A model generated the notes under the pieces. The model had not been told where the DNA came from, did not search any database, and saw only the letters and a list, made by a program, of their open reading frames with translations. 64,000 nt of DNA from Clostridiales bacterium (GTDB lineage: Bacteria; Bacillota; Clostridia; Saccharofermentanales; Saccharofermentanaceae), in NCBI GenBank assembly GCA_017940895.1, contig JAGAXM010000020.1, positions 788-64,787 on the forward strand, given 5' to 3'. Positions 10,966 to 59,622 of this stretch are shown here, one piece after another (within the stretch, counting starts at the first letter, position 1; each line of letters begins with the position of its first letter). Both the position numbers and the translations under genes were made by a program.

Positions 10966-11422
10966 TTCGGCACCCTTAATCGGAGCAGCACTTGTAGTAG
11001 GTTTTATCGTAATCGTAGTTCTGTGCGTGCTCGCTGACAGCAAGTCAAAGAAGAAGTTCATGAATATGATCCAGGAGACTTACACGATCAAGGATAAGTC
11101 CGGTCAGATTATCATTACTTCCAACAATGAGATCATGTTCTCAGTTCCCTCCGGGACACTGCCCGGATACAAGAAATTCGCTCTCGAGGATATCGCTTAT
11201 GTAGGCTTCTACGTAAACCGCGGACAGAAGTCATTCAGTTTTCTCGACTCAAACAAGAAGGCGATGAAGGGTGAGTATCTTACACCTTCCAAGAAACCTT
11301 TGCTTCAGAAGGGTATGGCAGCTTTCCCCATGTCATCAGGAGAGCAGGATCAGATCTTCGAGTTTGTAAAGAAATATAAGTCAGACGTTCTTAAGATCGT
11401 AAACGGCAACGTCTCCGAGTAA
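10958..11422 (+). CDS. Single-TM hypothetical protein
   Basis: RBS GGAGGA before ATG 10958, overlapping the MATE stop; N-terminal TM. Confidence 0.7.
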   Translation: MNNSAPLIGAALVVGFIVIVVLCVLADSKSKKKFMNMIQETYTIKDKSGQIIITSNNEIMFSVPSGTLPGYKKFALEDIAYVGFYVNRGQKSFSFLDSNKKAMKGEYLTPSKKPLLQKGMAAFPMSSGEQDQIFEFVKKYKSDVLKIVNGNVSE

Positions 11423-11675
11423 TATGCCGGACCCTAAGGGCGACCTGCTGATCCTGATATCATGGATGAGTGGTATCACAATGGTGCATTAGTCCTGTGG
11501 ACCAATGAGGACAAATGGTTTAATCTGTTCTACAACTGGTTCGCGTTCGCAGTAAACGGTATCCTCGGCATGAATGTCCTGACGATCCGGATCTGATCTC
11601 TTATTAATATATTATTATAGAACGCGCGCCCGCCCTGTGTTATTATAAAAACGACTTGATAATTTGGGGTGTGTT

Positions 11676-14039
11676 ATGACCAAATGGATAATTGTTGTTG
11701 ATGATGATACCGCCAATCTTAAGATGGCGGGTCATATCCTGAGTAAGAACAATATGCGCGTTACGGCGCTGAAGTCAGGTAAGTCTTTCCTTGATTACGT
11801 TGATACCAACGGCATGCCGGATCTGGTGCTTCTTGATATCAAGATGCCGGAGATGGACGGCTTCGAGACTTTGCTTAAGTTAAGGGAGCTCGAGGAGAAG
11901 AAGGGACTCATGAAGACGCCGGTCATCTTTCTTACCGCAGACGAAGATGTTGATACAGAGACAAGAGGCTTCGAGGTCGGTGTATCCGACTTTATAAGAA
12001 AGCCTTTTAACCCGGACGTACTTCTTCGAAGACTTGATAATATCCTGTCGAGTACGCAGCAGATCATAAACCTTACAAGTGAGGCTACGATCGACAAGCT
12101 CACGGGATTCCTGAATAAGAGTGCGACCGGCGTGGAGCTGTCCAAGCAGTGTTCCGATACGACCGGGTGCCTCATGATGATCGACCTTGACTCATTCAAG
12201 CTCGTAAACGACATCTACGGTCACGAGATGGGCGATAAGGTGCTCATCGCTTTCGCGGATATCATAAGAGAGGCGCTCCCTGCGGGAAGTAAGCACGGAC
12301 GTATCGGAGGCGACGAGTTCGTCTCATTCGCGGCGGGCGTCACGACGGAAGACAGAGTCGCCGACATCACTGCAAAGATCAATGCGGATCTCGTGCGTAA
12401 GGCGAAGGAACTGATGGGCGACGATATGAGCATTCCTCTCGGTGCTTCCGTCGGAGGCATCTTTGTTCCGAGATTCGGTAACGAATATAATTCGCTTCTC
12501 AAGCTCGCTGATAAGTCCCTGTACATCGTAAAGAAGAACGGCAAGCACGGATATGAGCTTTACGATGACGATATGGAAGACGAGACCGAGGGTGCACAGG
12601 ATCTTGATATCAAAGCGTTATCCGAGATCCTGGGCGAGAGATCGATCCAGAATGTCGCACTGCAGTTGGACAAAGACTCGTTCTCTCCCGTTTACCGCTA
12701 TGTAATCCGCTACATCATCAGACATCACATCGATGCATGTAAGGTGCTGTTTACTCTTGCTCCTTCACGAGGCAATGCCGACGTCGAATACTACGAGAGT
12801 GTCGACGAGTTCGGCAACCACATAAGAGAGTCGCTTCGTAAGTCCGATATCTTCATGAGAAACAGGAAGAATCAGTACTTCGTATTCTTAACGGACATAA
12901 GAGCCGATTCGGTCGGTAAAGTAATCGGACACATAATGAATTCCTGGAAGAAGAAGGGGATCGATAATCTTGCCATCTCATATGAGACCGAGTTCATCGG
13001 CAACAACGCCGAGCAGGTCAAGGTAGAGAAGACCAAGAGAGTCTGTATCGTTGATGACGATGCGATCAATCTTCAGGTCGCAGGCAAGATCTTAAGCAAA
13101 GACGGGATCCATGTTACCGCGTTGAAGTCGGGAGAAGCTCTTTTCGAGCAGCTCGATAAGACGGACGTGCTGCCGGACCTTATCCTCCTCGACGTCAAGA
13201 TGCCCGGCATGGACGGCTACGAGACAATAAGGAGACTTCATTCGCTCGAGACACCCGCTTCGAAGATCCCTGTCATGTTCCTTACGGCAGACGAGAGCGA
13301 CGGCGCGGAGAGGGAAGGCCTCACGTTAGGCGCGATGGACTTCATACGTAAGCCTTTCGTGCCGGAGGTGCTGCTGCTTCGTGTGAACAACATAATCGAG
13401 CTCGTAACGCTTCAGAAGCAGCTGTACTTCGAGGTCGAGCAGAAAACACGTGAGAATAAGGAACTGTTCCTGCAGATCGTAAGCTCGCTTGTTGCCGCGA
13501 TCGAGACCAAGGACGAGTATACGAAGGGTCACAGCAGACGCGTGGCGCAGTACTCGAAGATGATCGCGAAAAGACTCGGGTACTCGGACGCCAGACAGGA
13601 CGAGATGTATATGATCGGCATCCTGCATGACGTAGGTAAGATCGGTATAAAGATCGACGTACTGAATAAGAAAGGCTCGCTCGATAAAGACGAGTACGAG
13701 CAGATCAAGACGCACGCTTTTAAGGGTGCATCGATCTTAAACAACATCGAGACGAATCCGAGGTTCGCTCTGGGCGCGAAGCACCATCACGAGCGCTACG
13801 ACGGCACGGGTTATCCCGAGGGTCTCAAGGGAGACAAGATCCCCGAGGAAGCGAGGATAATCGCAGTAGCCGATGCTTATGATGCGATGTCATCTGACAG
13901 AAGCTACAGAGATCATCTTCCTCAGGACGAGATAAGAAGGGAACTTATTGAAGGCAAGGGGACGCAGTTCGATCCCGTATATGCCGACATAATGCTCTCG
14001 ATTATGGACGAAGACAAAGACTACAGATTAAAGGGTTAA
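11676..14039 (+). CDS. REC-GGDEF-(degenerate domain)-REC-HD-GYP c-di-GMP cyclase/phosphodiesterase
   Basis: Two intact receivers (VVDDD..LLDIKMP..FLTA..KPF), RIGGDEF, HDVGK, HHERYDGTGYP. Confidence 0.92.
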   Translation: MTKWIIVVDDDTANLKMAGHILSKNNMRVTALKSGKSFLDYVDTNGMPDLVLLDIKMPEMDGFETLLKLRELEEKKGLMKTPVIFLTADEDVDTETRGFEVGVSDFIRKPFNPDVLLRRLDNILSSTQQIINLTSEATIDKLTGFLNKSATGVELSKQCSDTTGCLMMIDLDSFKLVNDIYGHEMGDKVLIAFADIIREALPAGSKHGRIGGDEFVSFAAGVTTEDRVADITAKINADLVRKAKELMGDDMSIPLGASVGGIFVPRFGNEYNSLLKLADKSLYIVKKNGKHGYELYDDDMEDETEGAQDLDIKALSEILGERSIQNVALQLDKDSFSPVYRYVIRYIIRHHIDACKVLFTLAPSRGNADVEYYESVDEFGNHIRESLRKSDIFMRNRKNQYFVFLTDIRADSVGKVIGHIMNSWKKKGIDNLAISYETEFIGNNAEQVKVEKTKRVCIVDDDAINLQVAGKILSKDGIHVTALKSGEALFEQLDKTDVLPDLILLDVKMPGMDGYETIRRLHSLETPASKIPVMFLTADESDGAEREGLTLGAMDFIRKPFVPEVLLLRVNNIIELVTLQKQLYFEVEQKTRENKELFLQIVSSLVAAIETKDEYTKGHSRRVAQYSKMIAKRLGYSDARQDEMYMIGILHDVGKIGIKIDVLNKKGSLDKDEYEQIKTHAFKGASILNNIETNPRFALGAKHHHERYDGTGYPEGLKGDKIPEEARIIAVADAYDAMSSDRSYRDHLPQDEIRRELIEGKGTQFDPVYADIMLSIMDEDKDYRLKG

Positions 14040-14046
14040 TGAAGTT

Positions 14047-16626
14047 ATGACCACGACTGTCGAAAGCAACGAATTATTCCAGACATCACACCTTACACTA
14101 CTCATAAGTTATACGCTGTTCTCGACGGCGCTTATAATCGAATCATTCCTGATGGGATGGGAGAAATGGATGCTCCTGCTTGTGGTCGCAGGCGTCATAG
14201 TCTCCTGGATACTTCACATCAGACATAACACTCCCGCGAATGTCAGGATCTGGATATATGCGGTCCTCATGATGGGAGAGTTCTTCTTCTACGGTACGCA
14301 TCAGACAAGCACATTCGATCTTGCCGTAGTCATTTCCGCACTTATCATGCTGTTTACGATGACGGGCATCAAGTCGCTCATAAGCCTGTGCCAGTTCACT
14401 TACTACGGTACCATGGCATACGAGATCGTTATGATGGTGCTTAACCACGAGCCGTTCGATGCTCTTATCATCTCCCGTTCGGTACTTCATGTCGTCATGG
14501 TATTCTTCATCGGAAGATTCGCGAAGATCATCATAGACAAGTGGCAGGAAGTTCTTAACAGATCCAAGGATGAGGTAATCCAGCTTAAGTACGCGACCGA
14601 GAAATTGAACGACTTTCTCGCGAACGTATCGCATGAGTTAAGAACTCCTGTCAATGCGATCATCGGTCTTTCTACGATCTGCATCGAGAAGAGCCGTAAC
14701 CGTGCGGTCGAAGGCGACATGATCGCCGTCCGTAATGCGGGCAGAAGAGTCGCCGAGCAGATAAGCGATATCCTTGATTATTCCGAGATCGACCGTCATA
14801 AGGCGGTCCGTAACAACGAAGACTATATGCTCTCTTCCGTACTTCACGACCTCGTAACCGAGATAAAGCAGTATAAGACCAAGGACGTAGAGCTCATCAT
14901 AGACGTTGATCCTTCAATCCCTGCTGTAATGAATTCAGACGTCAGCAAGTTGAAGAAGATCCTTAAGGCTCTGATCAGCAACGGCCTTAAGTACACACAG
15001 AAGGGCGGCGTCTATGTAAGGATCTCGACCGAGGACCAGGAATACGGCGTTAACCTGTGCATCGAGGTAACCGACACCGGTATCGGTATGTCAGAGTATG
15101 AACTCGAGAAGGTATATGAGAGCTTCTATCAGGCTGATTCTTCACGCACAAGAATGGGCGGCGGTTTAGGATTGGGTCTTGCGATCGTATCGGGATTCGT
15201 ATCTCTGCTCGGCGGTTTCATGACCATCGACAGTAAGCCTGACGTCGGAACTACGGTTCACGTAAGTATACCTCAGAAGGTAGTCGATCCCGTATCGTGC
15301 ATGTCTGTTGCAAATCCCGACAAGCTCTGCCTCGGTGCGTTCCTGCACTTCGAGAAGTACGAGAACCCAGCCGTACGTGATTACTACAACGCGATGGTGC
15401 TTAATATCGTTAAGGGCCTCGGGGTTCAGATGCACCGCGTTAATAACGCTAATAACCTGAAGCTTCTTCGTGACTCGATACACCTGACACATGTCTTTGT
15501 CGGTGAAGAGGAGTACCGCGATAACGTCGATCTTCTCGAGAAGCTCGCACGCGATATGGTAGTCGCTGTCGTCGCGAATGATGATCTCGTTCTCCCCAAG
15601 AACTCGCGCGTCAAGCTCCTGGAGAAGCCTTTCTACTGCTTCCCGGTAGTATCTGTTCTGAACTCGTCTGTCGGCGATGTTGCTGACACCGTTAAGAAGA
15701 TGCGCTGCAACGGCGTACGTGCGCTCGTAGTCGACGATGAGTCGATGAACCTCGTAGTAGCGAAGAGCATCTTCTCAAGATACGGCATGGAAGTCACGAC
15801 CGTTACCTCCGGACAGGAGTCTATCGACATCTGCCGCGAAAAGGTTTTCGACATCATCTTCATGGATCACATGATGAGCGGCATGGACGGTGTCGAGGCG
15901 ATGAAGAGGATACGTACGGATGTATCCGGTCTCAATGCTTCGATCCCGATCGTCGCACTGACTGCGAATGCTATGAGTTCGGCAAAGCAGATGTTCCTTG
16001 CGGAGGGCTTCGACGGATTCGTAAGCAAGCCTGTGGAGACTGAAGAGCTCGAGCGTGTATTGAAGCTTGTGCTTCCTAAGAAGTCAATCACATATGACGA
16101 CGGCAGTGCCCCGGAAGAAGATGATGATTATGCTGAGACTCCCAAGGCTCCGGCACTCGTTCCCGGAGATGTCGAGGCGGCTGATCCCATGGATAAGCTC
16201 GATGACGCGGGCATTAATACTGCAGCGGGTCTTAAGTACTGTGTGGATGATGTAGAGTTCTATAAGTCACTGCTTATACAGTTCGCATCCGAATACGATG
16301 AGAAGATCGAATCGATGAAGTCCTATTACGGTAAGAAGGACTGGCACAATTACGAGATCCTCGTACATGCGCTTAAGAGTACTGCGAAGATGATCGGTGC
16401 GGCGGATCTGTCCGAGAAAGCCAAGTCTCTTGAGATGGCTTCCAAGAACAATGACGAAGCATTTATTTTGAGTAATCACGATCAGACAATGATGGATTAC
16501 GGAAGGATATGCGGCGAGATCAAGGCGCAGCTTATGAATATCCCGGCAGATGCAGATGAAGACGATGATGAGGTCTTCGAATTCGTGCCGGAAGACGATT
16601 CTGCAAAGGGAGGTGATATGGCATGA
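14047..16626 (+). CDS. Hybrid sensor histidine kinase (TM-HisKA-HATPase-pseudoREC-REC-HPt)
   Basis: H-box SHELRTP, N-box SNGLKY, G-boxes DTGIG and GLGLGL, REC FMDHMM, HPt VHALKS. Confidence 0.92.
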   Translation: MTTTVESNELFQTSHLTLLISYTLFSTALIIESFLMGWEKWMLLLVVAGVIVSWILHIRHNTPANVRIWIYAVLMMGEFFFYGTHQTSTFDLAVVISALIMLFTMTGIKSLISLCQFTYYGTMAYEIVMMVLNHEPFDALIISRSVLHVVMVFFIGRFAKIIIDKWQEVLNRSKDEVIQLKYATEKLNDFLANVSHELRTPVNAIIGLSTICIEKSRNRAVEGDMIAVRNAGRRVAEQISDILDYSEIDRHKAVRNNEDYMLSSVLHDLVTEIKQYKTKDVELIIDVDPSIPAVMNSDVSKLKKILKALISNGLKYTQKGGVYVRISTEDQEYGVNLCIEVTDTGIGMSEYELEKVYESFYQADSSRTRMGGGLGLGLAIVSGFVSLLGGFMTIDSKPDVGTTVHVSIPQKVVDPVSCMSVANPDKLCLGAFLHFEKYENPAVRDYYNAMVLNIVKGLGVQMHRVNNANNLKLLRDSIHLTHVFVGEEEYRDNVDLLEKLARDMVVAVVANDDLVLPKNSRVKLLEKPFYCFPVVSVLNSSVGDVADTVKKMRCNGVRALVVDDESMNLVVAKSIFSRYGMEVTTVTSGQESIDICREKVFDIIFMDHMMSGMDGVEAMKRIRTDVSGLNASIPIVALTANAMSSAKQMFLAEGFDGFVSKPVETEELERVLKLVLPKKSITYDDGSAPEEDDDYAETPKAPALVPGDVEAADPMDKLDDAGINTAAGLKYCVDDVEFYKSLLIQFASEYDEKIESMKSYYGKKDWHNYEILVHALKSTAKMIGAADLSEKAKSLEMASKNNDEAFILSNHDQTMMDYGRICGEIKAQLMNIPADADEDDDEVFEFVPEDDSAKGGDMA

Positions 16627-19349
16627 GAGACATGTTCAGATATCTGTTCAGGCCGTCAACCAATGACCCCGAGGCAGTAAAGTCAACCTATTACGAATCA
16701 GTAGGACCTACCAAGGTCACGATGTACATATCGTTTGTAACGGCGGTCATATTCCTGACGCTTACATTCGTATATCCTCCGTACTTCGGAGGCACGACTG
16801 TGTTATATCACCAGCTGTGCTATATATGGCTGCTTCTTGTAGTTGTTATATGGTTCGCCGGAATGCATTATGCGATGAAGGATTACGCGACCAGATATAA
16901 GACTGTCTATGTTCTTAACCACTTCATGGGAATATCGCTTTATTTATGGGTTATGTCTCTCGTTATCGTCAACTCCCTTGCCAGAGGCACAGTTGATACG
17001 ACTCTGTTCATGACCGTAGCGCTGGTAGTTCCTTTGTGTGTTTACTTTAACCCGATAGCATATGTCATCGTCTCGCTGTCATCGAACTGCATCATGATGA
17101 CATTCCTCTATATCATGGTAAGCAAGGGTGCGATCGAGCCGAATGAGATGGCGAACTTCACGATCTTCTCCGTATTCCAGGTGCTGATGGGAATCATCAT
17201 GTCCTATACCAGATACAGGCTTAACGATCAGCTCGTTAAGGCGGAGAGACAGCATAAAGAGATCGAGATGCTGAATAAGGCTCAGAACAGTTTCTTCTCG
17301 AATATGAGCCATGAGATCAGAACTCCTATCAACACGATCATCGGTCTTAACGAGATGATCTTAAGAGAGGACGTAAGTGAGGAAGTAATCGAGGATGCGG
17401 TCAACATCAAGGCTGCGGGTAAACTTCTTCTTAACCTCATCAACGATATCCTCGATATGAGTAAGTTCCAGTCCGGACGCATGCAGCTTCTTATCGAGCC
17501 GTACCGAACGGGCGATATGCTCTCCGATATCGTAGGTATGCTCTGGATCAGAGCCAAGGATAAGAAGCTCGACTTTAATGTCGATGTATCTCCTGACATC
17601 CCCGCAGAACTCGTCGGCGATGAAGTAAGAATCAAGCAGATCCTGATTAACGTTATCAACAATGCAATCAAGTATACGAGCGAAGGTTCCGTATCGCTCT
17701 CCGTTCAGTGCGAGATGAAGGAAGACAAGATCTGCAACATGATCTACATGATCTCCGATACGGGTATCGGTATCAAGACTGAGGACATTCCTTATCTGTT
17801 CTCCGCGTTCAAGAGAGTGGATGAGACCGTCAACAAGCACATCGAAGGAACGGGTCTCGGTCTGTCGATCGTAAAGCAGCTCGTAGATCTCATGGGCGGT
17901 AAGATCACGGTCAACAGTGTCTATAAGAAGGGTTCCACATTCATCATCGAGATCCCTCAGAGAGTTGAGCGCGAAGGTTCCGTCGGACAGTATGACTTCG
18001 AGAATTCACACGGTGCGGCTAAGCGTAAGGAATATGCACCGAAGTTCGAAGCACCTGATGCACGTATCCTCGTCGTCGATGATAATGAAGCGAACCTCAT
18101 GGTTGTAAGTAAGCTCTTACGAAGCACCAAGGTCCGCGTCGATACCGTTACGAGCGGTGCCGAGGCATTGAGAAGAACGCTTAACGTTAAGTACGATGCG
18201 ATCTTCATGGATCACCTGATGCCCGAGATGGACGGTGTCGAGTGCCGCCGTAAGATCAAGGAGCAGACGGGAGGACGATGCCGCGAGACTGCGATCGTAA
18301 TACTTACCGCGAATGCCGATGAAGAGAACCGCGCTCTGTATGCACGCGAGAATTTCGACGGGTATTTAAGTAAGCCCGTAAGCGGCGAAGAGCTTGAGAA
18401 CGAACTTTATAATATTCTCCCGAAGGAGATCGTTAAGATCACGGGTCAGAGAAGTGAGATCGCAGAGGATTCGATCTCGTGGATGAACGGCAGCAACAAG
18501 CGTAAGAGCGTCATCATTACCACTGAGAGTGTCGCCGATCTGTCGCCCGAAGTTATCCGCAAGTATAAGATCGGTATCCTTCCTCATAAGGTACGCACCG
18601 CAGAGGGTGTCTTCAAGGACGGCAAGGAGATCGAGACGCTTGGTGTTCTTAAGTATATGGAAGATCCGACTAATGCGGTTATGCCTATGGGTCCTACCGT
18701 AAGAGAGGCAGAGGAGTTCTTTGCAAAGCAATTGTCTTATGCGAATAACGTAATCCATATCTCCATCTCGAGTAAGGTCGAGAATTCAGGTTTCCAGCCT
18801 GCTATCGATGCGGCAAGGTCTTTCGATAATGTATTTGTCATTGATTCGCAGCACCTGTCGAGCGGTCAGGGAATACTGGCACTCGAGGCTGCACGTATGG
18901 CAGATCTCGGCATGCCGCCCGAGAAGATCGTCGAGGAGCTCGAGAACGTCAAGAAGAAGATCCGCACGAGCTTTATCGTTGATAACCTCGACTTCCTCGC
19001 ACGTGCAGGACAGGTCGGCAATGGTATCGCGAATGTCGTTAAGTCGCTGATGGGCCGTCCCGTACTCGTTCTTCGCAAGGGTAAGATGGGCGTCGGCATG
19101 GCGTACTTCGGGACGCGCGAAAAGGCGTGGAAGAGTTATATCGCTTCCGCTTTGTCCACTCCGGCTGCGATCGATAACCGCGTATTGTTTGTAACTTATG
19201 TAGGACTTACAAAACGCGATACCGATTGGATAAGAGAGCAGATCGAGAAGAGGATGGACTTCGACCAGATCTACTTTAAACAGGCGTCACCTGCCATCGC
19301 AGTTAACTGCGGCGCGGGTACGTTCGGACTTCTGTATATGGAGAAATAA
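16623..19349 (+). CDS. Hybrid histidine kinase (TM-HisKA-HATPase-REC) with a C-terminal DegV/FakB-like domain
   Basis: SHEIRTP, NNAIKY, GTGLGL, REC FMDHLMP. From ~18507, DegV-like IITTESVADL, HISISS, VIDSQHLSSGQG, FIVDNLDFL and VNCGAGTFGL. Confidence 0.85.
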   Translation: MRDMFRYLFRPSTNDPEAVKSTYYESVGPTKVTMYISFVTAVIFLTLTFVYPPYFGGTTVLYHQLCYIWLLLVVVIWFAGMHYAMKDYATRYKTVYVLNHFMGISLYLWVMSLVIVNSLARGTVDTTLFMTVALVVPLCVYFNPIAYVIVSLSSNCIMMTFLYIMVSKGAIEPNEMANFTIFSVFQVLMGIIMSYTRYRLNDQLVKAERQHKEIEMLNKAQNSFFSNMSHEIRTPINTIIGLNEMILREDVSEEVIEDAVNIKAAGKLLLNLINDILDMSKFQSGRMQLLIEPYRTGDMLSDIVGMLWIRAKDKKLDFNVDVSPDIPAELVGDEVRIKQILINVINNAIKYTSEGSVSLSVQCEMKEDKICNMIYMISDTGIGIKTEDIPYLFSAFKRVDETVNKHIEGTGLGLSIVKQLVDLMGGKITVNSVYKKGSTFIIEIPQRVEREGSVGQYDFENSHGAAKRKEYAPKFEAPDARILVVDDNEANLMVVSKLLRSTKVRVDTVTSGAEALRRTLNVKYDAIFMDHLMPEMDGVECRRKIKEQTGGRCRETAIVILTANADEENRALYARENFDGYLSKPVSGEELENELYNILPKEIVKITGQRSEIAEDSISWMNGSNKRKSVIITTESVADLSPEVIRKYKIGILPHKVRTAEGVFKDGKEIETLGVLKYMEDPTNAVMPMGPTVREAEEFFAKQLSYANNVIHISISSKVENSGFQPAIDAARSFDNVFVIDSQHLSSGQGILALEAARMADLGMPPEKIVEELENVKKKIRTSFIVDNLDFLARAGQVGNGIANVVKSLMGRPVLVLRKGKMGVGMAYFGTREKAWKSYIASALSTPAAIDNRVLFVTYVGLTKRDTDWIREQIEKRMDFDQIYFKQASPAIAVNCGAGTFGLLYMEK

Positions 19350-19369
19350 CGCGTCGGGGGTCGTGTTAA

Positions 19370-21982
19370 ATGGCTGATTATGTAAGTATAAACCGTAACA
19401 ACAGAGCGATTAAGATAGCAGTTATCGGAAGTATACTTATCGCGATCATTCTGGTCGTAAGTACGCTTTGGATGGTGCAGACAGCCAAGCGCGATAATGA
19501 GATCGCGGTAAAGACCGTCAGCCTTATGTACCTGGATGAGCTTGCGGGAAGAAGAGAGCAGGTAGTAGATAATAATCTTCAGAACAGGATACGAGATCTG
19601 CGTACCGCGGTAGGACTTATGGATGAAGAGGACTTAAGCGACCTTGATCATCTTCAGGCTTATCAGTCCAGAATGAAGCAGCTATATGTACTCGATAGGT
19701 TCGCATTCGTCGACGAGAACGGACTTATCTATACGTCTTTGGGACCTCAGGATAATATCGCCGAGTATGCGTTCGACTATCTGACTATAAGTGAGCCTGA
19801 GATCTCCATATTCAATCTTAACAGCAGCGAGAAGAAGGTTGTTATCGCTGTGCCTGTTGATATTCCATTCGACGGGCATACGCTTATGGTGTGCTTCATG
19901 GAAATCGACATGGACGAGATGCTCTCGGGTGTGTCGATGGCTTCCGGTGAGGATGATACGACTTTCTGTAATATCTATACGCATGACGGCGTCGCGCTGA
20001 CGGATTCTATCCTCGGCGGTCTTGCTCAGGAGGATAACCTTATCGAAGCGATGAGGAACGCCGATTACGATGACGGTTATTCTTATGAGCGTTTCCTCGA
20101 TGAGTTCGAGAACGGCGTGTCGGGTGAAGTTTCTTTTACCTATAACGGTATAAGGGAGACGTTAAGCTATGTTCCCGTTGATAATACGGACTGGAATCTT
20201 ACTTATCTTGTAAGGGAGAGCGTCATCTCCGAGAATATCTCGGGGCTTACGAACGGCATGATCATAAGAGGTGTTATCCTGTCGATTCTGACAGTCCTTG
20301 CAGTAGCGGTTCTGTTCCTTGTTATCCTCTCGGAGACGAGGCGTAATACAAGGCTTCTCCTTGAGAGCCAGACTGCGCAGGCTGAAGTCAAAGCGGCAGT
20401 CGAGGCTAATAAAGCGAAGTCGGCATTCCTTTCTAATATGTCGCATGAGATAAGAACCCCGATGAATGCGATCATCGGTCTTGATAATATTGCGCTTAAC
20501 GATCCCGAAACGCCGGAAAGCACCAAGGAATATCTCCGTAAGATATCGAGCTCCGCGGAGCATCTTCTTAGTATCATCAACGACATCCTCGATATGTCCC
20601 GTATCGAGTCGGGAAGGCTGACGTTAAAGAATGAGGAATTCTCTTTCTCGAAGCTTCTCGAGACCATAAACGTGATGATATCCGGTCAGTGTAATGACAA
20701 GGGAGTCGAGTATCAGTGCCATATAAGTCCCGACATTGAAGACTATTATGTGGGCGACAACGTCAAGATCAGGCAGGTGCTCATTAATGTCCTCGGCAAT
20801 GCCGTTAAGTTTACTCCCGAAGGCGGACAGGTATCTCTCGATGTTAAACGTAAGGCGCACTACGACGGACATTCCACGATAGAGTTCACGGTAGCGGATA
20901 CGGGTATCGGAATAAGTGAGGACTTCATGCCGCACCTTTTCGACACGTTCGCGCAGGAAGACAGTTCAGCGACGAACCGATACGGCAGCTCGGGGCTTGG
21001 TCTTGCGATTACCAAGAATATTGTCGAGATGATGAACGGCGACATAAGCGCCGTAAGCACCAAGGGTAAGGGCACGACTTTTACGATCGTTATCACGCTT
21101 GATGACGCGGAGCACGAAGATGAGGATATGGTCGATAAGATCGATCCTTCGACAATGAGCGTGCTCGTTATAGATGATGACCCTGTCGCATGCGAGCATA
21201 CGAAGCTGATCCTCGGTAATGCGGGTATCGCATGTGAGATCGCATCTTCCGGCGCAGAGGCGGTCGAGAAGGTTAAACTGCGTCACGCAAGGCGAGATCC
21301 TTATAACCTGATCCTTGTCGACTGGCAGATGCCTGAGATGGACGGTATCGAGACGACAAGGAAGATAAGGGAGATCATCGGCAATGAGTCGGCGATCATT
21401 ATTCTTACAGCATACCGCTGGGATGACATCCTTGAAGAAGCTCTTTCTGCGGGTGTTGACAGCTTCATCGCGAAGCCCGTATTCGTCAACAGCGTTATCG
21501 ATGAGTTCAAGACTGCGCTTCGTAATAAGAATGCCATGCTCGAAGGACTGTCGAAGGTTGATCTTACGGGCAGACATATCCTTCTTGCAGAGGATGTCGA
21601 TGTCAATGCCGAGATCATGATGATGGTATTAAGCAGCAGGCAGATTGAAGTGGAACGCGCCGAGAACGGCAAGGTCGCCGTTGAGATGTTCCGTGAACAT
21701 GAAGAAGGCTACTACGATGCCATCCTTATGGATATGCGAATGCCCGAGATGGACGGTCTTGAAGCGACAAGGATCATCCGTGCCATGGACAGAAAGGATT
21801 CGAAGAAGATCCCGATCATCGCACTTACGGCCAATGCTTTCGACGAGGATGTACAAAGAAGCCTGCAGGCAGGTCTTAATGCACACTTAAGTAAACCGGT
21901 CCAGCCCGAATCATTATTCGAGACTTTGGAACTCTATATAGGAAAGAGGGAAAAGGAAGATGAAAAGATTCAGAACGATTAG
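19370..21982 (+). CDS. Hybrid histidine kinase with extracytoplasmic Cache-like sensor and two REC domains
   Basis: Two TMs flank ~270 aa; SHEIRTP; two intact receivers (LVDWQMP, LMDMRMP). Confidence 0.92.
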   Translation: MADYVSINRNNRAIKIAVIGSILIAIILVVSTLWMVQTAKRDNEIAVKTVSLMYLDELAGRREQVVDNNLQNRIRDLRTAVGLMDEEDLSDLDHLQAYQSRMKQLYVLDRFAFVDENGLIYTSLGPQDNIAEYAFDYLTISEPEISIFNLNSSEKKVVIAVPVDIPFDGHTLMVCFMEIDMDEMLSGVSMASGEDDTTFCNIYTHDGVALTDSILGGLAQEDNLIEAMRNADYDDGYSYERFLDEFENGVSGEVSFTYNGIRETLSYVPVDNTDWNLTYLVRESVISENISGLTNGMIIRGVILSILTVLAVAVLFLVILSETRRNTRLLLESQTAQAEVKAAVEANKAKSAFLSNMSHEIRTPMNAIIGLDNIALNDPETPESTKEYLRKISSSAEHLLSIINDILDMSRIESGRLTLKNEEFSFSKLLETINVMISGQCNDKGVEYQCHISPDIEDYYVGDNVKIRQVLINVLGNAVKFTPEGGQVSLDVKRKAHYDGHSTIEFTVADTGIGISEDFMPHLFDTFAQEDSSATNRYGSSGLGLAITKNIVEMMNGDISAVSTKGKGTTFTIVITLDDAEHEDEDMVDKIDPSTMSVLVIDDDPVACEHTKLILGNAGIACEIASSGAEAVEKVKLRHARRDPYNLILVDWQMPEMDGIETTRKIREIIGNESAIIILTAYRWDDILEEALSAGVDSFIAKPVFVNSVIDEFKTALRNKNAMLEGLSKVDLTGRHILLAEDVDVNAEIMMMVLSSRQIEVERAENGKVAVEMFREHEEGYYDAILMDMRMPEMDGLEATRIIRAMDRKDSKKIPIIALTANAFDEDVQRSLQAGLNAHLSKPVQPESLFETLELYIGKREKEDEKIQND

Positions 21983-23648
21983 TCATTTTAAGAAGAGAGT
22001 CCTGATCGTAGATGATGAGGATATCAACCGTCAGATCCTGGGTAATATGCTCGGTGGAACTTACGAAGTCGATCTTGCCTGTGACGGTAAAGAGGCTTGG
22101 GACAAACTGAATGAGGACGGCAGCGATTATTCGCTGATCCTTGCAGATCTTCTCATGCCTGTTATGGACGGGTTCGAACTTATAGAGAAAGTTAAAGCGG
22201 ATCCCGTTCTTAAAGCGGTACCCGTTATCGTCATTACTTCGGATAAAGAATCTGAGGTTAAAAGTATAAAGCTCGGAGCTGCCGATTTTATCAAGAAGCC
22301 GTTCGGTATGCCGGATGTTATTCTCGCCAGATGCGAGAGGATCATCGAGCTGTACGAAGACACCACGATCATCAGATCCGCCGAGAAGGACCACGTCACG
22401 GGGCTTTATACGAGAGATCTGTTCTTCGAGTATGTAAGGCAAATCGATGTTCATCAGAGAGAACTTAATATGGACTGCGTGGTCTTTAATATCGATCACT
22501 TCCATCTTGTCAATGAGATGTACGGACGTGAGGCGGGAGATTTGATCCTTAAGAAAGTTGCCGACGCCATAACCGGAGCCATGGAAGGACATGCATCACT
22601 GGCGTGCAGAACAGAAGGCGATTCGTTCTATCTTTACTGTGAGCATCAGGACGGGTATGAGGCTTTGATGGATCGTATAACGGAGACTGTGGGAAGCGAT
22701 CAAGGTCCCGCCAAGATCAGACTTCGCGCAGGTGTCTATCTGGATGCGGATCGTAGCATGGATCCCGAGACAATGTTCGACCGCGCGAAGCTCGCATGCG
22801 ACAGGATCAAGGGCGATTACACCGTTACAGTCGCATACTATAACAATGAACTTTATCAGAAAGCGATCTATCAGGAGCACCTGATCGAGAATATCGACCA
22901 GTCTATCGAGGACGAAGACTTCAAGGTCTATTTCCAGCCTAAGTATGACATCACGGGAGATACCCCGAAGCTTAGAAGCGCCGAGGCTCTCATAAGGTGG
23001 AATCACCCCGAACTCGGCATGATAAGCCCGGGCGACTTTATCCCGCTGTTCGAGAGCAACGGCCTTATCCAGAAGGTTGATAACTTTGTCTGGAATAAGG
23101 CTGCGGCATGCATAAGGGAGTGGAAGAATAAGTACGGATATTCCGTGCCTGTATCGGTCAATGTATCCAGGATCGACATCTTCGACAGCAAGCTCGAGGA
23201 GAAACTGCAGAATATCCTTAAGAACAACGGCATCACCGAGAAGGATCTGATGCTCGAGATCACAGAGTCCGCTTATTCAGACAATGCGGACTCACTTACG
23301 GAAGTCACGAACAGGTTAAGAGAAAGCGGCTTTATGATCGAGATGGATGACTTCGGTTCCGGGTACTCATCGCTGAACATGATCACGACACTTCCCATCG
23401 ATGTTCTAAAGCTCGATATGAAGTTCGTGCGTAATATGGAAAAGGACGAGAAGAGTCTCAAGCTCGTTGAGCTCATTATAGGTATCGCGGGCTTCCTTAA
23501 CGTTCCTGTGGTTGCAGAGGGCGTCGAGACCGAGAGTCAGCTTAAGAAATTAAAGGATATGGGATGTCAGGTAATCCAAGGCTACTATTTCTCGCGCCCC
23601 GTACCGGCATCGGAGTTCGAAGAATTCATTAAGAAGGAATGCGTATGA
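21960..23648 (+). CDS. REC-GGDEF(degenerate)-EAL phosphodiesterase
   Basis: The GGDEF position reads RTEGDSF; EAL is intact (AEALIRW, DDFGSGYSS, EGVET, QGY). Confidence 0.92.
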   Translation: MKRFRTISHFKKRVLIVDDEDINRQILGNMLGGTYEVDLACDGKEAWDKLNEDGSDYSLILADLLMPVMDGFELIEKVKADPVLKAVPVIVITSDKESEVKSIKLGAADFIKKPFGMPDVILARCERIIELYEDTTIIRSAEKDHVTGLYTRDLFFEYVRQIDVHQRELNMDCVVFNIDHFHLVNEMYGREAGDLILKKVADAITGAMEGHASLACRTEGDSFYLYCEHQDGYEALMDRITETVGSDQGPAKIRLRAGVYLDADRSMDPETMFDRAKLACDRIKGDYTVTVAYYNNELYQKAIYQEHLIENIDQSIEDEDFKVYFQPKYDITGDTPKLRSAEALIRWNHPELGMISPGDFIPLFESNGLIQKVDNFVWNKAAACIREWKNKYGYSVPVSVNVSRIDIFDSKLEEKLQNILKNNGITEKDLMLEITESAYSDNADSLTEVTNRLRESGFMIEMDDFGSGYSSLNMITTLPIDVLKLDMKFVRNMEKDEKSLKLVELIIGIAGFLNVPVVAEGVETESQLKKLKDMGCQVIQGYYFSRPVPASEFEEFIKKECV

Positions 23649-23989
23649 TCACTGTCGATAATCTTAAGAAGTTCGGTGCAAACACAGAAGAAGGTATAGC
23701 AAGATGCATGGGTAACGAGCAGTTTTACTTAAAGCTCGTCGCGACCGTACCCGGACAGAAGGCGTTCGATGTACTGCGCGAAAAAGCATCGGCGGGTGAC
23801 CTCGATGCCGCTTTCGAGGCGGCGCATGCGCTTAAGGGCGTGCTCGGGAACCTCTCGCTGACTCCGCTTTATGAGAAGGTGTGCGAGATAACCGAGCTTC
23901 TTCGTGCGAAGACAGATATGGATTATACGGAGATCTTAAGTGAGATTACGGCTTTGAAGGAAGCCTTGCAAGAAATATGCGAACAGTGA
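23645..23989 (+). CDS. Stand-alone HPt phosphotransfer protein
   Basis: AHALKGVLGNL; ATG at 23645 overlaps the upstream stop. Confidence 0.88.
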   Translation: MITVDNLKKFGANTEEGIARCMGNEQFYLKLVATVPGQKAFDVLREKASAGDLDAAFEAAHALKGVLGNLSLTPLYEKVCEITELLRAKTDMDYTEILSEITALKEALQEICEQ

Positions 23990-24001
23990 GGTGATTAAAC
24001 T

Positions 24002-27000
24002 ATGACTGTTATGCAGGATGCGATCTTTAAGAAGATAGCTGAGGCGCTGCTCGTTGACTATACGAGTGTTTACTATGTCAATGCGGTCACGAATGAATAT
24101 TACTGGTATTCCGTCAATCCGGAGTTTCATTCGTTGAGACTCGAGCAGGGCGGAGAAGATTTCTTCAAGAATCTCGAACGTGACTGCAGGCTTGCGATAT
24201 ACGAAGAGGACCAGCATATCTTCCTCGAGGATATGCAGAAGGAAACTCTCCTCGCGGCGATGAAGAAAGGAAGCATGCAGAATATCGAATACCGCCTGAT
24301 GATCAATGGTGTCCCGGTATGGCACACGCTTCGTATGATCAGAGGTCTCGATGAGAATAATGATTACTTTATCCTCGGTGTCATCAACATCAATGAGGAA
24401 TACAAAAGAAGGCAGATCGAGAAGGAGATCGCGCGTCAGAAGGTAGTCTATAACCAGATCACCGCAAGTCTCGCGGGTCAGTACGACACACTGTACTACA
24501 TCAACATCGAGAACAATACTTATGTCGAGATATCCTCGACGGATGAATATAAGAAGATGAACGTGCCTGCGACGGGAAGCGATTTCTTTGCAGAGAGCAG
24601 AAGAAGTATCCGTAAGTATGTCCATCCCGAGGATCAGGAGAAGATCCTTAAGTATCACTATAAGGATGTGATGCTTAATAACTTAAAGCACAGGAATTCC
24701 TTCTCTATCGCATACAGGCTTGTCGTTAATGATATGGTCAAGCACATAAGACATACCGAGATCATGGCAAGTGACGGCAAACATATCATCGTCTGTATCG
24801 AGAATATTGATGAAGAGGTAAAGGCGAGGCTTGAGCTTACACAGACGAAGCAGAAGAGCCAGACATATACGCAGATTGCAGAGACTCTTGCGTCTCATTA
24901 CGACCTGATCTACTACATCGATGCCCAGACGGATCATTATACCGAGTTCGCTACACATAAGCTCTACGGAGAGCTTGAGGTGCACGAGGAGGCGGATGAC
25001 TTCTTCGGTATATCCGAAATGAATATAGACAGAGTCCTCCATCCCGATGACAGGGCGAGAATGAAGCTGTTCCTTGATAAGGATAATTTCATATCCGGAC
25101 TCGACAATAACCGTCAGCTTGTCGAGGATTACCGAATGGTGCTCGCTGACGGTGAACCGCGTTATACGAGAATGACGGTCTCCTGGTCTTCGGATAAGAC
25201 GCACTTTATCGTCTGTATCGAGAACAAGGATGAGGATATCAAGAAGGAAAAGGAGCATGTCGAGGCTTTGACTCTTGCAAATGAGATGGCACGCCGCGAC
25301 AGCCTGACCGGAACTCGAAACAAGACCGCATATAATGAGCTGGAGAAAGATCTGCAGGCTTCCATCGACGGAGATGATAAGATCCCGTTCGGAATCGTTA
25401 TTTGTGATCTTAATGATCTTAAGCTCATTAACGACACACAGGGACATAAGGCGGGAGATGAGTATATCAAGGATGCCTGTAAGCTTATATGCAGACTGTT
25501 CGCTCACAGCCCTGTCTTCAGGATCGGCGGCGATGAGTTTGTCGTCGTTCTTAAGGACGGAGATTATGAGAGCCGCGAGACTTTGATCTCATCATTAAGA
25601 CGTCAGGTCGAGAATAATCTTCGTATAGATCAGGGTCCTGTCATTGCATCGGGTATGGCGGAATTTGATCCGGGTAAGGATAAGTCCGTCGAGGACATCT
25701 TTATGCGCGCTGATGACCTTATGTACGAGGATAAGGCGCATCTTAAGGATATGAAGAATATCCTCGAAAGCTATTCGTTTAAAGACGACGATGCTATTAA
25801 GACGATCACGGAAGAAAGACGCAGGATGCTCGACACGCTGTTTAAGTCTTACGATGTCGTATCTGAAGGCACATATGTCTATCTTTGTGATATGAAGTAC
25901 GACTACTCGAGGTGGTCGAAGAATGCGGTCGATACATACGGGCTTCCTGCCGAGTATATGTACGGCGCGGGCGATATTTGGGAGAATTACATTCATCCTG
26001 ATGACAGAGAGGCATACCACAAGGGTATAGAAGAGATATTTGCCGGAAATACTTTCGGTCATGATATGCAGTACCGTGCCCGTAAGCCAAACGGTGAGTA
26101 TGATGTATGCACATGCAAAGGTGTTGTTATAAGAGATATTTTCGGTGAGCCGGATTACTTTGTAGGTACCATCCGTAACCACGGCGCGCAGGGTCAGATC
26201 GACACACTGACGGGACTTCGTAATCAGTACGGATTCTTCGATGATCTTAACGGGTACATCAAGAGGCAGGCTTCGGTCTATGTCCTTCTTATCGGTATCA
26301 GCAAGTTCTCGGAAGTTAATGAGGTGATGAGGTACCATTTCGGTAACCGCGTGCTTCAGTTGTTTTCAAGAAAGCTGTTCGATACCGTCGGTAATACCGG
26401 AAGCTGCTACAGGATGGACGGAACCAAGTTTGCCATTATAAGCACTACCATTTCGACCGAAGAACTGCAGGAAAGGTATGATGATTTCCGTGATTACTTC
26501 AGAGAGGAATTTCAGGTCGATGATAAAAAGATCATGCTGGAGATCAACTGCGGTGTGCTGAAGCTGGACAGATTCGAGTTCGATACGCAGACCGTATATG
26601 CCTGCCTGAACTTCGCTTATTCTGAGTCGAAAACAAAATGCCAAGGCGATCTCGTATTCTTCGAGAATGACGTTAACGAAGACAACAGGCAGAGACTTGA
26701 GAAACTTCATGCGATCCGTGCGTCCATCATGCACGGCTACCGCGGATTCTATCTTCTTTACCAGCCCGTCGTCGATGCGCATACGGAGAAGCTTGTGGCT
26801 GCTGAGGCCCTGCTTCGCTGGAAGAACGACACCTACGGTATGGTCCCGCCGGATCAGTTCATACCGTTGCTCGAATCCGACCCGCTGTTCCCGGAACTCG
26901 GCGAGTGGATCATTAAGGAAGCGCTAATGTCGGCAAAGAAGATCCTTAAGAAGAATCCGGACTTTGTAATCAATATCAATCTGTCATACACACAGCTCGA

Positions 27001-27460
27001 GAAGCATGACTTCGTCGATATGGTATTCCGTATACTGAAGGATCTGGAGTATCCGCCGGAGCACCTGTGCTTCGAGGTAACAGAGAGGTGCAGACTTCTT
27101 GATATCGATCTTTTGAGAAACGTTGCCGTAAGCCTTAAGGCAAGAGGCATACTGATCGCACTCGATGACTTCGGAACAGGTTTCTCGTCCGTCGGTATCG
27201 TCAAGGAGCTGCCGTTCGATATTATCAAGATCGACCGCGGATTCGTCGAGAAGATCGAGGAAGATCTTGTAGACAGAGAGCTTATCAAGAACTTTGCGGG
27301 CATCGCGTCCATCTTCGGTGCTAAGGTATGTGTCGAAGGTATCGAGACGTCCGGCATGAGAGATATCCTGCAGCAGTTCAATGTCGGAAGTTTCCAGGGC
27401 TACTATTATGCGAAGCCTTTGAAGTTCGACGAGTTCGTCGAGTGGGAAGAGGGGCATTGA
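24002..27460 (+). CDS. PAS/PAS-GGDEF-PAS-GGDEF(degenerate)-EAL protein
   Basis: Repeated VHPED/LHPDD/IHPDD PAS signatures; RIGGDEF intact; second site RMDGTKF; AEALLRW and DDFGTG. Confidence 0.9.
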   Translation: MTVMQDAIFKKIAEALLVDYTSVYYVNAVTNEYYWYSVNPEFHSLRLEQGGEDFFKNLERDCRLAIYEEDQHIFLEDMQKETLLAAMKKGSMQNIEYRLMINGVPVWHTLRMIRGLDENNDYFILGVININEEYKRRQIEKEIARQKVVYNQITASLAGQYDTLYYINIENNTYVEISSTDEYKKMNVPATGSDFFAESRRSIRKYVHPEDQEKILKYHYKDVMLNNLKHRNSFSIAYRLVVNDMVKHIRHTEIMASDGKHIIVCIENIDEEVKARLELTQTKQKSQTYTQIAETLASHYDLIYYIDAQTDHYTEFATHKLYGELEVHEEADDFFGISEMNIDRVLHPDDRARMKLFLDKDNFISGLDNNRQLVEDYRMVLADGEPRYTRMTVSWSSDKTHFIVCIENKDEDIKKEKEHVEALTLANEMARRDSLTGTRNKTAYNELEKDLQASIDGDDKIPFGIVICDLNDLKLINDTQGHKAGDEYIKDACKLICRLFAHSPVFRIGGDEFVVVLKDGDYESRETLISSLRRQVENNLRIDQGPVIASGMAEFDPGKDKSVEDIFMRADDLMYEDKAHLKDMKNILESYSFKDDDAIKTITEERRRMLDTLFKSYDVVSEGTYVYLCDMKYDYSRWSKNAVDTYGLPAEYMYGAGDIWENYIHPDDREAYHKGIEEIFAGNTFGHDMQYRARKPNGEYDVCTCKGVVIRDIFGEPDYFVGTIRNHGAQGQIDTLTGLRNQYGFFDDLNGYIKRQASVYVLLIGISKFSEVNEVMRYHFGNRVLQLFSRKLFDTVGNTGSCYRMDGTKFAIISTTISTEELQERYDDFRDYFREEFQVDDKKIMLEINCGVLKLDRFEFDTQTVYACLNFAYSESKTKCQGDLVFFENDVNEDNRQRLEKLHAIRASIMHGYRGFYLLYQPVVDAHTEKLVAAEALLRWKNDTYGMVPPDQFIPLLESDPLFPELGEWIIKEALMSAKKILKKNPDFVININLSYTQLEKHDFVDMVFRILKDLEYPPEHLCFEVTERCRLLDIDLLRNVAVSLKARGILIALDDFGTGFSSVGIVKELPFDIIKIDRGFVEKIEEDLVDRELIKNFAGIASIFGAKVCVEGIETSGMRDILQQFNVGSFQGYYYAKPLKFDEFVEWEEGH

Positions 27461-27471
27461 GGTAATTAATT

Positions 27472-27864
27472 ATGTGTTTGTTTTGTGATATAGCCGCGCA
27501 TAAGTTTGACGCGAATATAGTCGATGAGACCGAGCGGACGATAACGTTCCTTGATATCGCGCCAGCGAATGAGGGGCATGTTCTGATTATCCCGAAGCTT
27601 CATGTCGATTCGATCCTCGATCTTCCGGATGAATATGTGCTGGAGATAACTGAAGTCGAGCGTCGTGTTATCAAGGCTTACTCGAAGGTTTACGGCGCCA
27701 CGGGTTACGGCGTGATGCAGAACGGCGGCACCAACTGCGAGTTCGGGCATTTCCATTTCCATGTTTTTCCGCGCCTTCCTGACGACGGCTACGACTGGAT
27801 CTACCCGGAGGGGGAGAAGGAAGTTTCCGCAGAGGTGGCAGCCAAGATAAAGGCTGCGATGTGA
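27472..27864 (+). CDS. HIT family hydrolase
   Basis: CLFCDI start, GHVLIIPK, HFHFH triad. Confidence 0.92.
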   Translation: MCLFCDIAAHKFDANIVDETERTITFLDIAPANEGHVLIIPKLHVDSILDLPDEYVLEITEVERRVIKAYSKVYGATGYGVMQNGGTNCEFGHFHFHVFPRLPDDGYDWIYPEGEKEVSAEVAAKIKAAM

Positions 27865-59621: not shown

Positions 59622-59622
59622 T

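Follow-up and report, generated by a model that had tools for sequence, protein, structure and literature searches.

A conserved hybrid histidine kinase ending in a divergent DegV-type domain, encoded beside a c-di-GMP regulator in rumen Clostridia

What is a DegV/FakB-type domain doing at the end of a histidine kinase? To our knowledge, DegV/FakB proteins are known only as the fatty-acid carriers of the Fak kinase system. A 64,000-nucleotide stretch of DNA from a Clostridiales bacterium (assembly GCA_017940895.1, contig JAGAXM010000020.1, positions 788 to 64,787; the whole stretch is called the window hereafter) encodes at 16623-19349 a membrane-bound hybrid sensor kinase with such a domain at its C-terminus, here called the DegV kinase. 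The initial annotation proposed that the domain has been repurposed as a lipid or acyl sensor feeding a cyclic di-GMP (c-di-GMP) phosphorelay. The analysis indicates that the DegV kinase is real and conserved, and that its last domain is a member of the DegV family by both fold and profile. We see about an even chance that this domain is a FakA-independent, ligand-binding input or gate of a two-kinase c-di-GMP phosphorelay.

The reading frame is a single long open frame without internal stops over 908 residues, and its ATG shares 4 nucleotides with the stop codon of the preceding kinase gene. The gene and its parts are as follows.

16623..19349, + strand: whole gene, hybrid sensor histidine kinase with a C-terminal DegV-type domain, 908 amino acids plus stop
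16623..17237, + strand: N-terminal membrane module, residues 1-205, about six hydrophobic helices
17283..17477, + strand: HisKA, dimerisation and phospho-acceptor domain, residues 221-285 (Pfam)
17616..17960, + strand: HATPase_c catalytic domain, residues 332-446 (Pfam)
18066..18404, + strand: receiver (Response_reg), residues 482-594 (Pfam)
18405..18509, + strand: linker between receiver and DegV domain, residues 595-629, partly predicted to be disordered
18510..19343, + strand: DegV/EDD-fold domain of the Asn-type clade, residues 630-907 (Pfam, NCBIfam, structural model and tree)

The hydrophobic helices of the membrane module lie at about residues 32-50, 60-78, 97-119, 124-142, 148-166 and 176-194. 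The loops connecting them are short, which indicates that the sensor part is embedded in the membrane. No Pfam match and no extracytoplasmic domain was found within residues 1-205, and Pfam detected no HAMP or PAS domain ahead of HisKA. The kinase and receiver, described in the initial annotation as intact, are so. The H-box SHEIRTP (residues 229-235, nucleotides 17307-17327) contains the phospho-acceptor His230, the HATPase_c domain is present, and the receiver phospho-acceptor Asp530 is found in FMDHLMP (residues 528-534, nucleotides 18204-18224). The linker carries an invariant Trp620 and a basic KRK motif directly ahead of the first DegV strand. A full DegV domain had also been claimed, and both profiles agree with this: PF02645 matches residues 630-907 over profile positions 2-279 of 280 (E 7.4e-42, 144 bits against a cut-off of 27), and the NCBIfam model TIGR00762 (DegV) scores 152.9 bits against a cut-off of 99.7.

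The same four-domain layout was found in all 120 of the closest database proteins. The 78 full-length orthologues from other genomes are 860-930 residues long and keep all motifs, including the H-box His, the HATPase_c domain and the receiver Asp. Neither the DegV kinase nor any of these 78 orthologues contains a histidine phosphotransfer (Hpt) domain. Because the fusion is shared by the 120 database proteins and the 78 genomic orthologues, it is not an artefact of assembly. The database name given to such kinases of about 900 residues is only "DegV family EDD domain-containing protein".

Conservation was measured as the mean identity of the orthologues to the window protein. It is 90% in HisKA, 83% in HATPase, 78% in the receiver, 68% in the DegV domain and 49-60% in the linkers, and falls to 36% in the membrane module, the least conserved part. 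The DegV domain has 39 invariant columns and the membrane module has none. The 68% mean identity of the DegV domain, compared with 36% for the membrane module, indicates at the level of sequence that the DegV domain is under purifying selection.

The fold of the domain was predicted by AlphaFold with 62 orthologous domains as input (predicted local distance difference test, pLDDT, 91; predicted template modelling score, pTM, 0.89). The model was compared by Foldseek with all solved DegV/FakB structures (45 chains), giving TM scores of 0.81-0.86 and a root-mean-square deviation of about 2.7 A. These include S. aureus FakB1 (5UTO/6MH9) and FakB2 (4X9X), S. suis FakB2 (7W7H chain E), T. thermophilus DegV (2DT8) and the G. 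stearothermophilus protein (1PZX). The next tier, with TM scores of about 0.45-0.55, consists of the FakA C-terminal domain, DhaQ and DhaK. Model and Foldseek comparison together identify a two-lobed DegV/EDD fold, at a sequence identity of 18-24% to the solved structures. The sole soft spot within the modelled domain is found at domain residues 171-190 (residues 790-809 of the protein), where pLDDT dips to 72-73. This segment coincides with the dynamic lid of FakB.

Does the domain keep the residues by which FakB works? In FakB, the fatty-acid carboxylate is held by Thr61, Ser93 and His264/266. Arg170 (Arg173 in FakB1) is a latch over the fatty acid, without which the fatty acid stays unphosphorylated, and both R170A of FakB2 and R173A of FakB1 are inactive. 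Arg202 (Arg205 in FakB1) serves both in docking to FakA and in the orientation of FakB at the membrane (PMC10848957, PMC8892158). These positions were mapped via a 160-sequence alignment and a second, more careful multiple alignment, together with pairwise HMMER alignments to 2DT8, 3FYS, 1PZX and S. aureus FakB1. The corresponding motifs are as follows.

18684..18698, + strand: PMGPT, residues 688-692, with Pro688 at the carboxylate Thr (FakB1 T62, FakB2 T61)
18768..18791, + strand: SSKVENSG, residues 716-723, the loop matching the canonical SSG(I/L)SGT loop with Ser95/93
18843..18872, + strand: DSQHLSSGQG, residues 741-750, with His744 invariant in the orthologues and Leu745 at FakB1 Ala121
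18996..19013, + strand: LARAGQ, residues 792-797, within the lid segment, with Gln797 at the latch Arg (FakB1 R173, FakB2 R170)
19104..19121, + strand: YFGTRE, residues 828-833, with Phe829 at the FakA-docking Arg (FakB1 R205, FakB2 R202)
19302..19319, + strand: VNCGAG, residues 894-899, with Asn895 at the carboxylate His (FakB1 H270, FakB2 H266)

The initial annotation had noticed that the family G-R motif reads AGQ and that the late conserved His reads Asn. Both observations were borne out. LARAGQ aligns with the canonical L(K/Q/A)RGGR in the pairwise HMMER alignments, and VNCGAG aligns with (S/T/A)H.G.G in the pairwise alignments and in both multiple alignments. The SSKVENSG loop contains a one-residue insertion, because of which the counterpart of the carboxylate Ser is not assignable from sequence and may be E720, N721 or S722. 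Four of the five residues defining FakB are therefore replaced: the window protein reads Pro, (Glu/Asn/Ser), Gln, Phe and Asn where FakB has Thr, Ser, Arg, Arg and His. Of the 21 close relatives included in the alignment, 20-21 have the same replacements.

The tunnel and the dynamic lid have been defined in FakB1 numbering (PMC8892158), and only the five tunnel positions given in that literature were mapped (A121, A158, V162, L191 and L271). Their counterparts, L745, T782, V786, L815 and C896, are all uncharged, four of them hydrophobic, and are conserved among the orthologues.

To place the domain within its family, the DegV domain alone was scored against 1.84 billion cluster representatives. 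The search gave 6021 matches, 207 of them below 1e-30. The best 150 matches, which represent clusters at 50% identity, were annotated using the window's own domains as queries. With HK for histidine kinase and REC for receiver, 47 are HK-REC-DegV, 8 are HK-REC-DegV-Hpt, 6 are DegV-HK-REC-Hpt with an N-terminal DegV domain and 60 are DegV alone, and the remainder are several other fused forms and partial proteins. The domain is fused to HK, REC or Hpt in 87 of the 135 alignable cases. In the fused kinases it stands after the receiver, between the receiver and Hpt, or at the N-terminus. Two of the forms confirmed by Pfam are DegV-dCache-HisKA-HATPase-REC-Hpt (P0163) and DegV-TM-HisKA-HATPase (P0149). 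In a further match, P0133 (889 residues), the back half of a partner-type kinase and its receiver run into the last part of a HATPase domain of the DegV-kinase type, which a receiver and DegV follow. Either two neighbouring genes were naturally fused or joined by a deletion, or the contig is chimeric.

Asn occupies the position of FakB1 His270 in 71 of 87 fused and 34 of 48 stand-alone members. Arg is found at the Arg205 position in none of the fused members, and at the Arg173 position in about a third of them. The Thr62 position is mostly Ser or Thr in the wider clade. Fully canonical T-S-R-R-H proteins are confined to the bottom of the match list. A maximum likelihood tree was built in which the canonical side comprised four Protein Data Bank (PDB) references and seven representatives. 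Branches with support of 98-99 in the SH-like approximate likelihood ratio test (SH-aLRT) part the canonical His-type proteins from 131-133 other rows, 110 of which have Asn at the His position. Within this Asn-type clade the stand-alone members are scattered among the fused ones, and P0001 lies inside a 16-row sub-clade of HK-REC-DegV proteins with a support of 99. The columns that distinguish the groups are H270 to N, G264 to S and L276 to F, and the signature motif NCG(P/A)GTF replaces H.G.G. By these signature columns and its branch, the window domain belongs to the Asn-type clade, which is defined here and is not a curated family. No solved structure was found in the clade; the best PDB match of a stand-alone member is the canonical 2DT8, at 2e-21.

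Judged by alignment and tree, the Asn-type proteins form a separate, well-supported branch distinct from canonical FakB, in which His-to-Asn is a clade-wide signature and Pro688 and Gln797 are specific to the lineage of the window. This qualifies the initial description of altered fatty-acid-carboxylate residues. Both changes are real, but the His-to-Asn change is not local, as it is found in 83% of about 126 diverse clade members. The Arg-to-Gln change is lineage-specific, and about 45% of the wider clade keep the Arg.

The clade also lacks the basic trio K188/K203/R205, through which FakB is reported to contact FakA and to take up its orientation at the membrane. These residues become H/R, I/V/F and F/I/M, respectively, across the Asn-type clade. 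This loss bears on the main rival explanation, in which the domain would be a pseudo-FakB scaffold without any ligand, the face that once docked FakA and oriented FakB on the membrane now binding the partner kinase or its Hpt. Such a domain would tether the two kinases described below or control access to a shared Hpt. The replacement of the docking patch by hydrophobic residues throughout the clade would suit this, as would a carboxylate site that is largely dismantled in the window's lineage and the almost constant pairing of the DegV kinase with a second hybrid kinase, with one Hpt per pair. There is also an EDD-fold precedent for a macromolecular effector of a regulator in DhaQ with DhaS (PMC4325133; 2IU6). 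However, DhaQ itself retains the binding of a small ligand. The five mapped tunnel positions remain conserved and uncharged and the lid looks mobile, neither of which a pure scaffold needs, and at the head-group site most of the wider clade retains Ser/Thr and Ser, often together with Arg. We consider the scaffold explanation unlikely, though it deserves serious attention.

Is there a Fak system for the domain to serve? The genome of the window (G000; 2.65 Mb, 99.8% complete) gave a single match to the DegV profile, the DegV kinase itself. TIGR03599 (YloV/FakA) and PF02734 (Dak2) gave zero matches in this genome, and the control genomes do match. A tblastn search of the genome with the FakA of a congener (G021) found nothing, and a search with the FakA-adjacent DegV of G021 matched the fused domain alone, at 26.5% identity. 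The FakA partner expected of a FakB is thus not encoded. A congener (G006, 97% complete) has the fusion, no FakA and no stand-alone DegV.

The distribution was surveyed in 25 genomes of the genus. The fusion is present together with a FakA/DegV pair in G002, G004, G005, G007, G008, G009, G017 (where the fusion frame is shortened by a contig end), G020 and G021. The pair is present without the fusion in G023. The fusion is present alone in G000, G006 and three less complete genomes, and nine genomes have neither. The fusion and the FakA/DegV pair occur independently within the genus. A recent duplication of the genus's own FakB was considered as the origin of the domain and rejected, given the 26.5% identity and the different clades.

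The domain agrees with FakB/DegV in its complete two-lobed fold, its uncharged mapped tunnel positions and the low-confidence segment at the lid. It differs in being fused to the end of a hybrid kinase and not standing alone, in its defining residues, in the loss of the basic patch, in its separate clade and in a genome without FakA. A domain that differs in the defining residues and has no FakA partner should not be classed among the fatty acid kinase subunits. It could also be read as an ordinary FakB that hands fatty acids to FakA, the fusion being incidental or an assembly artefact, and the DegV models do match it over their full length. This explanation deserves next to no credence: neither FakA nor Dak2 is found in the window's genome or in G006, the FakA-binding and catalytic Arg residues are lost, and more than 100 database clusters as well as the 78 orthologues share the fusion.

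Two observations on the Fak proteins of related genomes were also made. The stand-alone DegV of congeners (L082, G021:C2:124000-129500) is encoded two genes from FakA and keeps the Thr, the Ser and the GR motif; at the carboxylate His it has Ser (NGSSIGPG), which indicates that even the presumed true FakB of the genus is non-canonical. Three other genomes from the same taxonomic order (L084, G026:C1:507800-510400; G029:C59; G035:C1) contain one open reading frame of about 600-650 residues in which an N-terminal Dak2/FakA kinase domain (profile positions 1-295) is directly joined to DegV. PlsY lies within 2 kb of it in G026 and G035. The DegV part has Phe at the His position and no FakA-docking Arg. 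From its domain content, this frame looks like a one-polypeptide fatty acid kinase.

PlsX (PF02504) and PlsY (PF02660), the enzymes of acyl-phosphate synthesis and use, were undetectable in the 99.8%-complete genome of the window. PlsY is also missing from 37 of 41 relatives, including FakA-positive congeners with DegV. As the gap exists even in FakA-positive relatives, it is a lineage oddity and was down-weighted as an argument against acyl-phosphate chemistry. The lineage must use an unrecognised route for phosphatidic acid synthesis and for the use of the acyl-phosphate that FakA makes where it is present.

Receivers accept phosphoryl groups from small acyl-phosphates. The DegV domain comes directly after the receiver, which raises the idea that a fatty acid or acyl-phosphate held in the tunnel exchanges a phosphoryl group with the receiver Asp, making the protein a FakA-independent fatty acid kinase or an acyl-phosphate sensor. 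FakB does carry acyl-phosphate (PMC8892158). However, the Arg essential for phosphorylation is Gln here, the carboxylate His and Thr are Asn and Pro, and the inactivity of R170A FakB2 and R173A FakB1 (PMC10848957, PMC8892158) stands against such chemistry. No fixed interface between receiver and DegV domain is predicted, and the absence of PlsX and PlsY counts in the same direction with the reduced weight given above. The exchange is very improbable.

With the Fak system set aside, which partners does the gene order offer? The DegV kinase closes a three-gene core in the order REC-GGDEF-REC-HD-GYP, HK-REC-Hpt and HK-REC-DegV, and further signalling genes follow.

11664..14039, + strand: regulator REC-GGDEF-REC-HD-GYP with GGDEF, HDVGK and GTGYP intact, first gene of the three-gene core
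14047..16626, + strand: partner hybrid kinase with several transmembrane segments, HisKA, HATPase_c, a stretch of about 150 residues, receiver and Hpt
19370-21982, + strand: HK-REC-REC, downstream add-on
21960-23648, + strand: REC, degenerate GGDEF (EGDSF) and EAL, downstream add-on
23639-23989, + strand: stand-alone Hpt, 116 residues, downstream add-on
24002-27460, + strand: GGDEF-PAS-EAL, 1152 residues, downstream add-on

Related loci were scanned with one genome per species. At least 580 genomes encode a relative of the domain, and the loci of the best 80 of these (53-96% identical) were compared. All of the best 80 come from ruminant digestive tracts, as judged by record titles. They are metagenome-assembled genomes and isolates of Saccharofermentans, Ruminococcaceae, Lachnospiraceae and unclassified Clostridiales. 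HK-REC-Hpt directly precedes HK-REC-DegV on the same strand in every locus with enough upstream sequence, and the regulator gene stands before the kinase pair in most loci. In the orthologous regulators, GGDEF is intact in 46 of 46, HD..GK in 44 of 46 and GYP in all. The H-box and the Hpt His of the partner kinase are kept in 77 of 82. The conserved synteny with an intact REC-GGDEF-REC-HD-GYP protein would suit a putative output of the RpfC/RpfG type, and no sequence relation to the RpfC sensor region was found.

A second family was also sampled, at one genome for each of 121 genera, and selected loci were examined. Fused DegV kinases were found in about 17 of the 121 genera (about 14%). An Hpt-less HK-REC-DegV follows HK-REC-Hpt in 12 of 12 cases, and HK-REC-DegV-Hpt follows an Hpt-less HK-REC in 3 of 3. 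Three loci are of other types: a DegV-HK-REC-Hpt comes after an Hpt-less HK-REC and has another HK-REC-Hpt upstream, an HK-REC-DegV comes after an Hpt-less HK-REC and a separate REC-Hpt gene, and an HK-DegV has no partner kinase. The rule of one Hpt per kinase pair holds in all 15 clear pairs of this family, and in the 78 orthologues, where the Hpt-less DegV kinase is always beside an Hpt-bearing kinase. This pattern of two adjacent hybrid kinases with one Hpt suggests that the two work as a unit and feed a single relay.

The nearby outputs in the second family are REC-HD-GYP, REC-GGDEF-REC-HD-GYP, REC-GGDEF or a single receiver, and four paired loci have a single-domain receiver alone and no c-di-GMP enzyme nearby. 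These four loci count against the proposal that the domain binds a non-lipid small molecule, such as c-di-GMP or another nucleotide, as feedback from the output of the relay. The proposal draws on the c-di-GMP output of the operon, on the remodelled head-group site and on EDD-fold relatives such as DhaK that bind small polar substrates. However, no known c-di-GMP-binding motif was seen in the domain, conserved Arg residues are few, and the tunnel positions are still hydrophobic. Nucleotide feedback is improbable.

The reading of the domain as a ligand-binding input or gate is favoured for several reasons. Domains of the clade also stand at the N-terminus of kinases, where input domains are usually found, or separate the receiver from Hpt. 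The tunnel positions are retained, as is the lid, and most clade members keep a Ser/Thr-Ser-Asn head-group site. In the window's lineage, the loss of the Arg and the Thr and the possible Glu in the Ser loop make a free carboxylate less probable as the ligand.

As proposed, both kinases would autophosphorylate, and the phosphoryl group would move first to each kinase's own receiver and from there to a single shared Hpt, that of the upstream kinase (14047..16626), the presumed donor for the pair. The Hpt would then phosphorylate the two receivers of the GGDEF/HD-GYP regulator, the presumed output, and so set the balance between synthesis and hydrolysis of c-di-GMP. The DegV domain, joined to the receiver by a flexible linker, would be kept next to the membrane by the six-helix anchor and would act as a regulatory cytoplasmic module and not as a carrier. 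A hydrophobic ligand would most likely lie in the retained tunnel under the mobile lid, with a head-group chemistry unlike that of the FakB-bound fatty-acid carboxylate. The state of the ligand could modulate either the transfer from receiver to Hpt or the balance between kinase and phosphatase activity. The repurposing proposed in the initial annotation is thus partly upheld: a conserved, non-FakB domain under purifying selection, a genome without FakA and the synteny with the regulator all agree with it.

Several points weigh against a ligand-binding input. L745 and T782 are bulkier than A121 and A158 of FakB1, and the tunnel could be narrowed or closed. The remodelled head-group site, with Pro, Gln, Asn and possibly Glu, also resembles a decayed pocket. 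In an AlphaFold model of receiver plus DegV, both domains are confident, but the pTM of the whole is 0.65 and no fixed interface is formed, which means that there is no structural hint of coupling between the domains; about 17 residues of the linker (about residues 609-625) are predicted to be disordered, with pLDDT below 50. The neighbourhoods of 17 stand-alone Asn-type DegV genes contain no recurrent neighbour and no adjacent FakA. Finally, we infer phosphotransfer to the neighbour's Hpt from gene order alone.

If the ligand of this input is a lipid, the Asn-type DegV domain may be an unrecognised class of membrane-proximal lipid-sensing input domain that couples membrane lipid status to c-di-GMP, an extension that we advance tentatively. 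Free unsaturated fatty acids from forage are toxic to rumen Clostridia and would be a plausible signal. The Asn-built head-group site would then specify a ligand other than the free carboxylate bound by FakB, and the kinase pair of rumen and gut Clostridia would couple fatty-acid or lipid status to lifestyle decisions.

By analogy, the known system that the DegV kinase most likely works like is RpfC-RpfG of Xanthomonas, in which an HD-GYP phosphodiesterase of c-di-GMP is controlled by a hybrid kinase that binds a fatty acid, the diffusible signal factor DSF (PMC5391125). The two systems would have in common a hybrid kinase in the membrane, a step through Hpt and an output by a receiver-HD-GYP protein acting on c-di-GMP. 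They differ at the sensor: RpfC lacks a DegV domain and detects DSF with the membrane and periplasmic portion of its N-terminus. In the present organisms, which are Gram-positive rumen anaerobes, the kinases come as a pair, the regulator combines GGDEF with HD-GYP, and the ligand is putative. The closest precedent for the reuse of the fold is DhaQ. In DhaQ-DhaS of Lactococcus lactis and DhaK/DhaL-DhaR of E. coli, EDD-fold kinase subunits serve as regulatory sensors (PMC4325133). DhaQ (2IU6, Foldseek TM 0.55) is likewise a paralogue from the same superfamily that left its kinase job and reports the state of a ligand to a regulator. However, DhaQ is a separate protein that binds dihydroxyacetone and acts on a TetR-type transcription factor, whereas the DegV domain is covalently part of a phosphorelay kinase and comes from the lipid-binding DegV branch.

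In Vibrio, the hybrid kinases LuxN, LuxQ and CqsS all feed LuxU, so that several kinases share one Hpt and a common response regulator. The present relay differs in that the Hpt is fused to one of two adjacent kinases, which one varying by lineage, and that one kinase always carries a DegV-type domain.

Other features of the window were recorded. In the partner kinase, the stretch of about 150 residues between HATPase_c and the receiver (about residues 410-560) has no Pfam match, and could be a degenerate receiver-like or docking domain relevant to the pairing of the kinases. The add-on genes at 19370..27460 were seen only in the window and, in part, in the two closest genomes (L002, L003); they look like a recent expansion of the relay. 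A scan of 10900-28000 for promoters and terminators gave counts no higher than those of shuffled sequence, and no operon boundaries were obtained from it. Upstream of the relay, a STAS-domain protein (2612-3856) and a SpoIIE-type PP2C phosphatase (7673-9130) are components of partner switching. The open reading frame at 30342-31361 matches the uncharacterised GGGtGRT family (PF14057, E 7.5e-187). The G+C content is 0.40-0.42 at 1-2000 and 54000-64000, compared with 0.46-0.52 in the middle of the window, and the low-G+C ends may mark islands of different origin.

Literature searches found no paper on a DegV-kinase or DegV-receiver fusion, only incidental mentions; the DegV of PMC12688256, for example, is an ordinary stand-alone gene. 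This agrees with the statement of the initial annotation that it knew of no characterised kinase-DegV fusion. Its expectation that similar architectures may be annotated in rumen genomes was also right, as the database matches and the 80 ruminant-gut loci are annotated but uncharacterised. The current database naming hides the fact that these proteins of about 900 residues are kinases.

These results describe a large sister clade within the DegV fold that appears to be independent of FakA and has been wired repeatedly into hybrid kinases, in at least three positions. Its spread amounts to at least 87 fused representatives at 50% identity, and the orthologous fusion is found in 80 ruminant-gut species genomes out of at least 580 with a relative of the domain. 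The regularity of a shared Hpt, carried by either member of the pair according to lineage, informs how phosphorelays are built. If the domain still binds a lipid, two-component signalling would gain a new kind of cytoplasmic input domain. Lipid sensing and the setting of c-di-GMP in abundant fibre-degraders of the rumen, for which there is almost no experimental entry point at present, would then be open to direct study.

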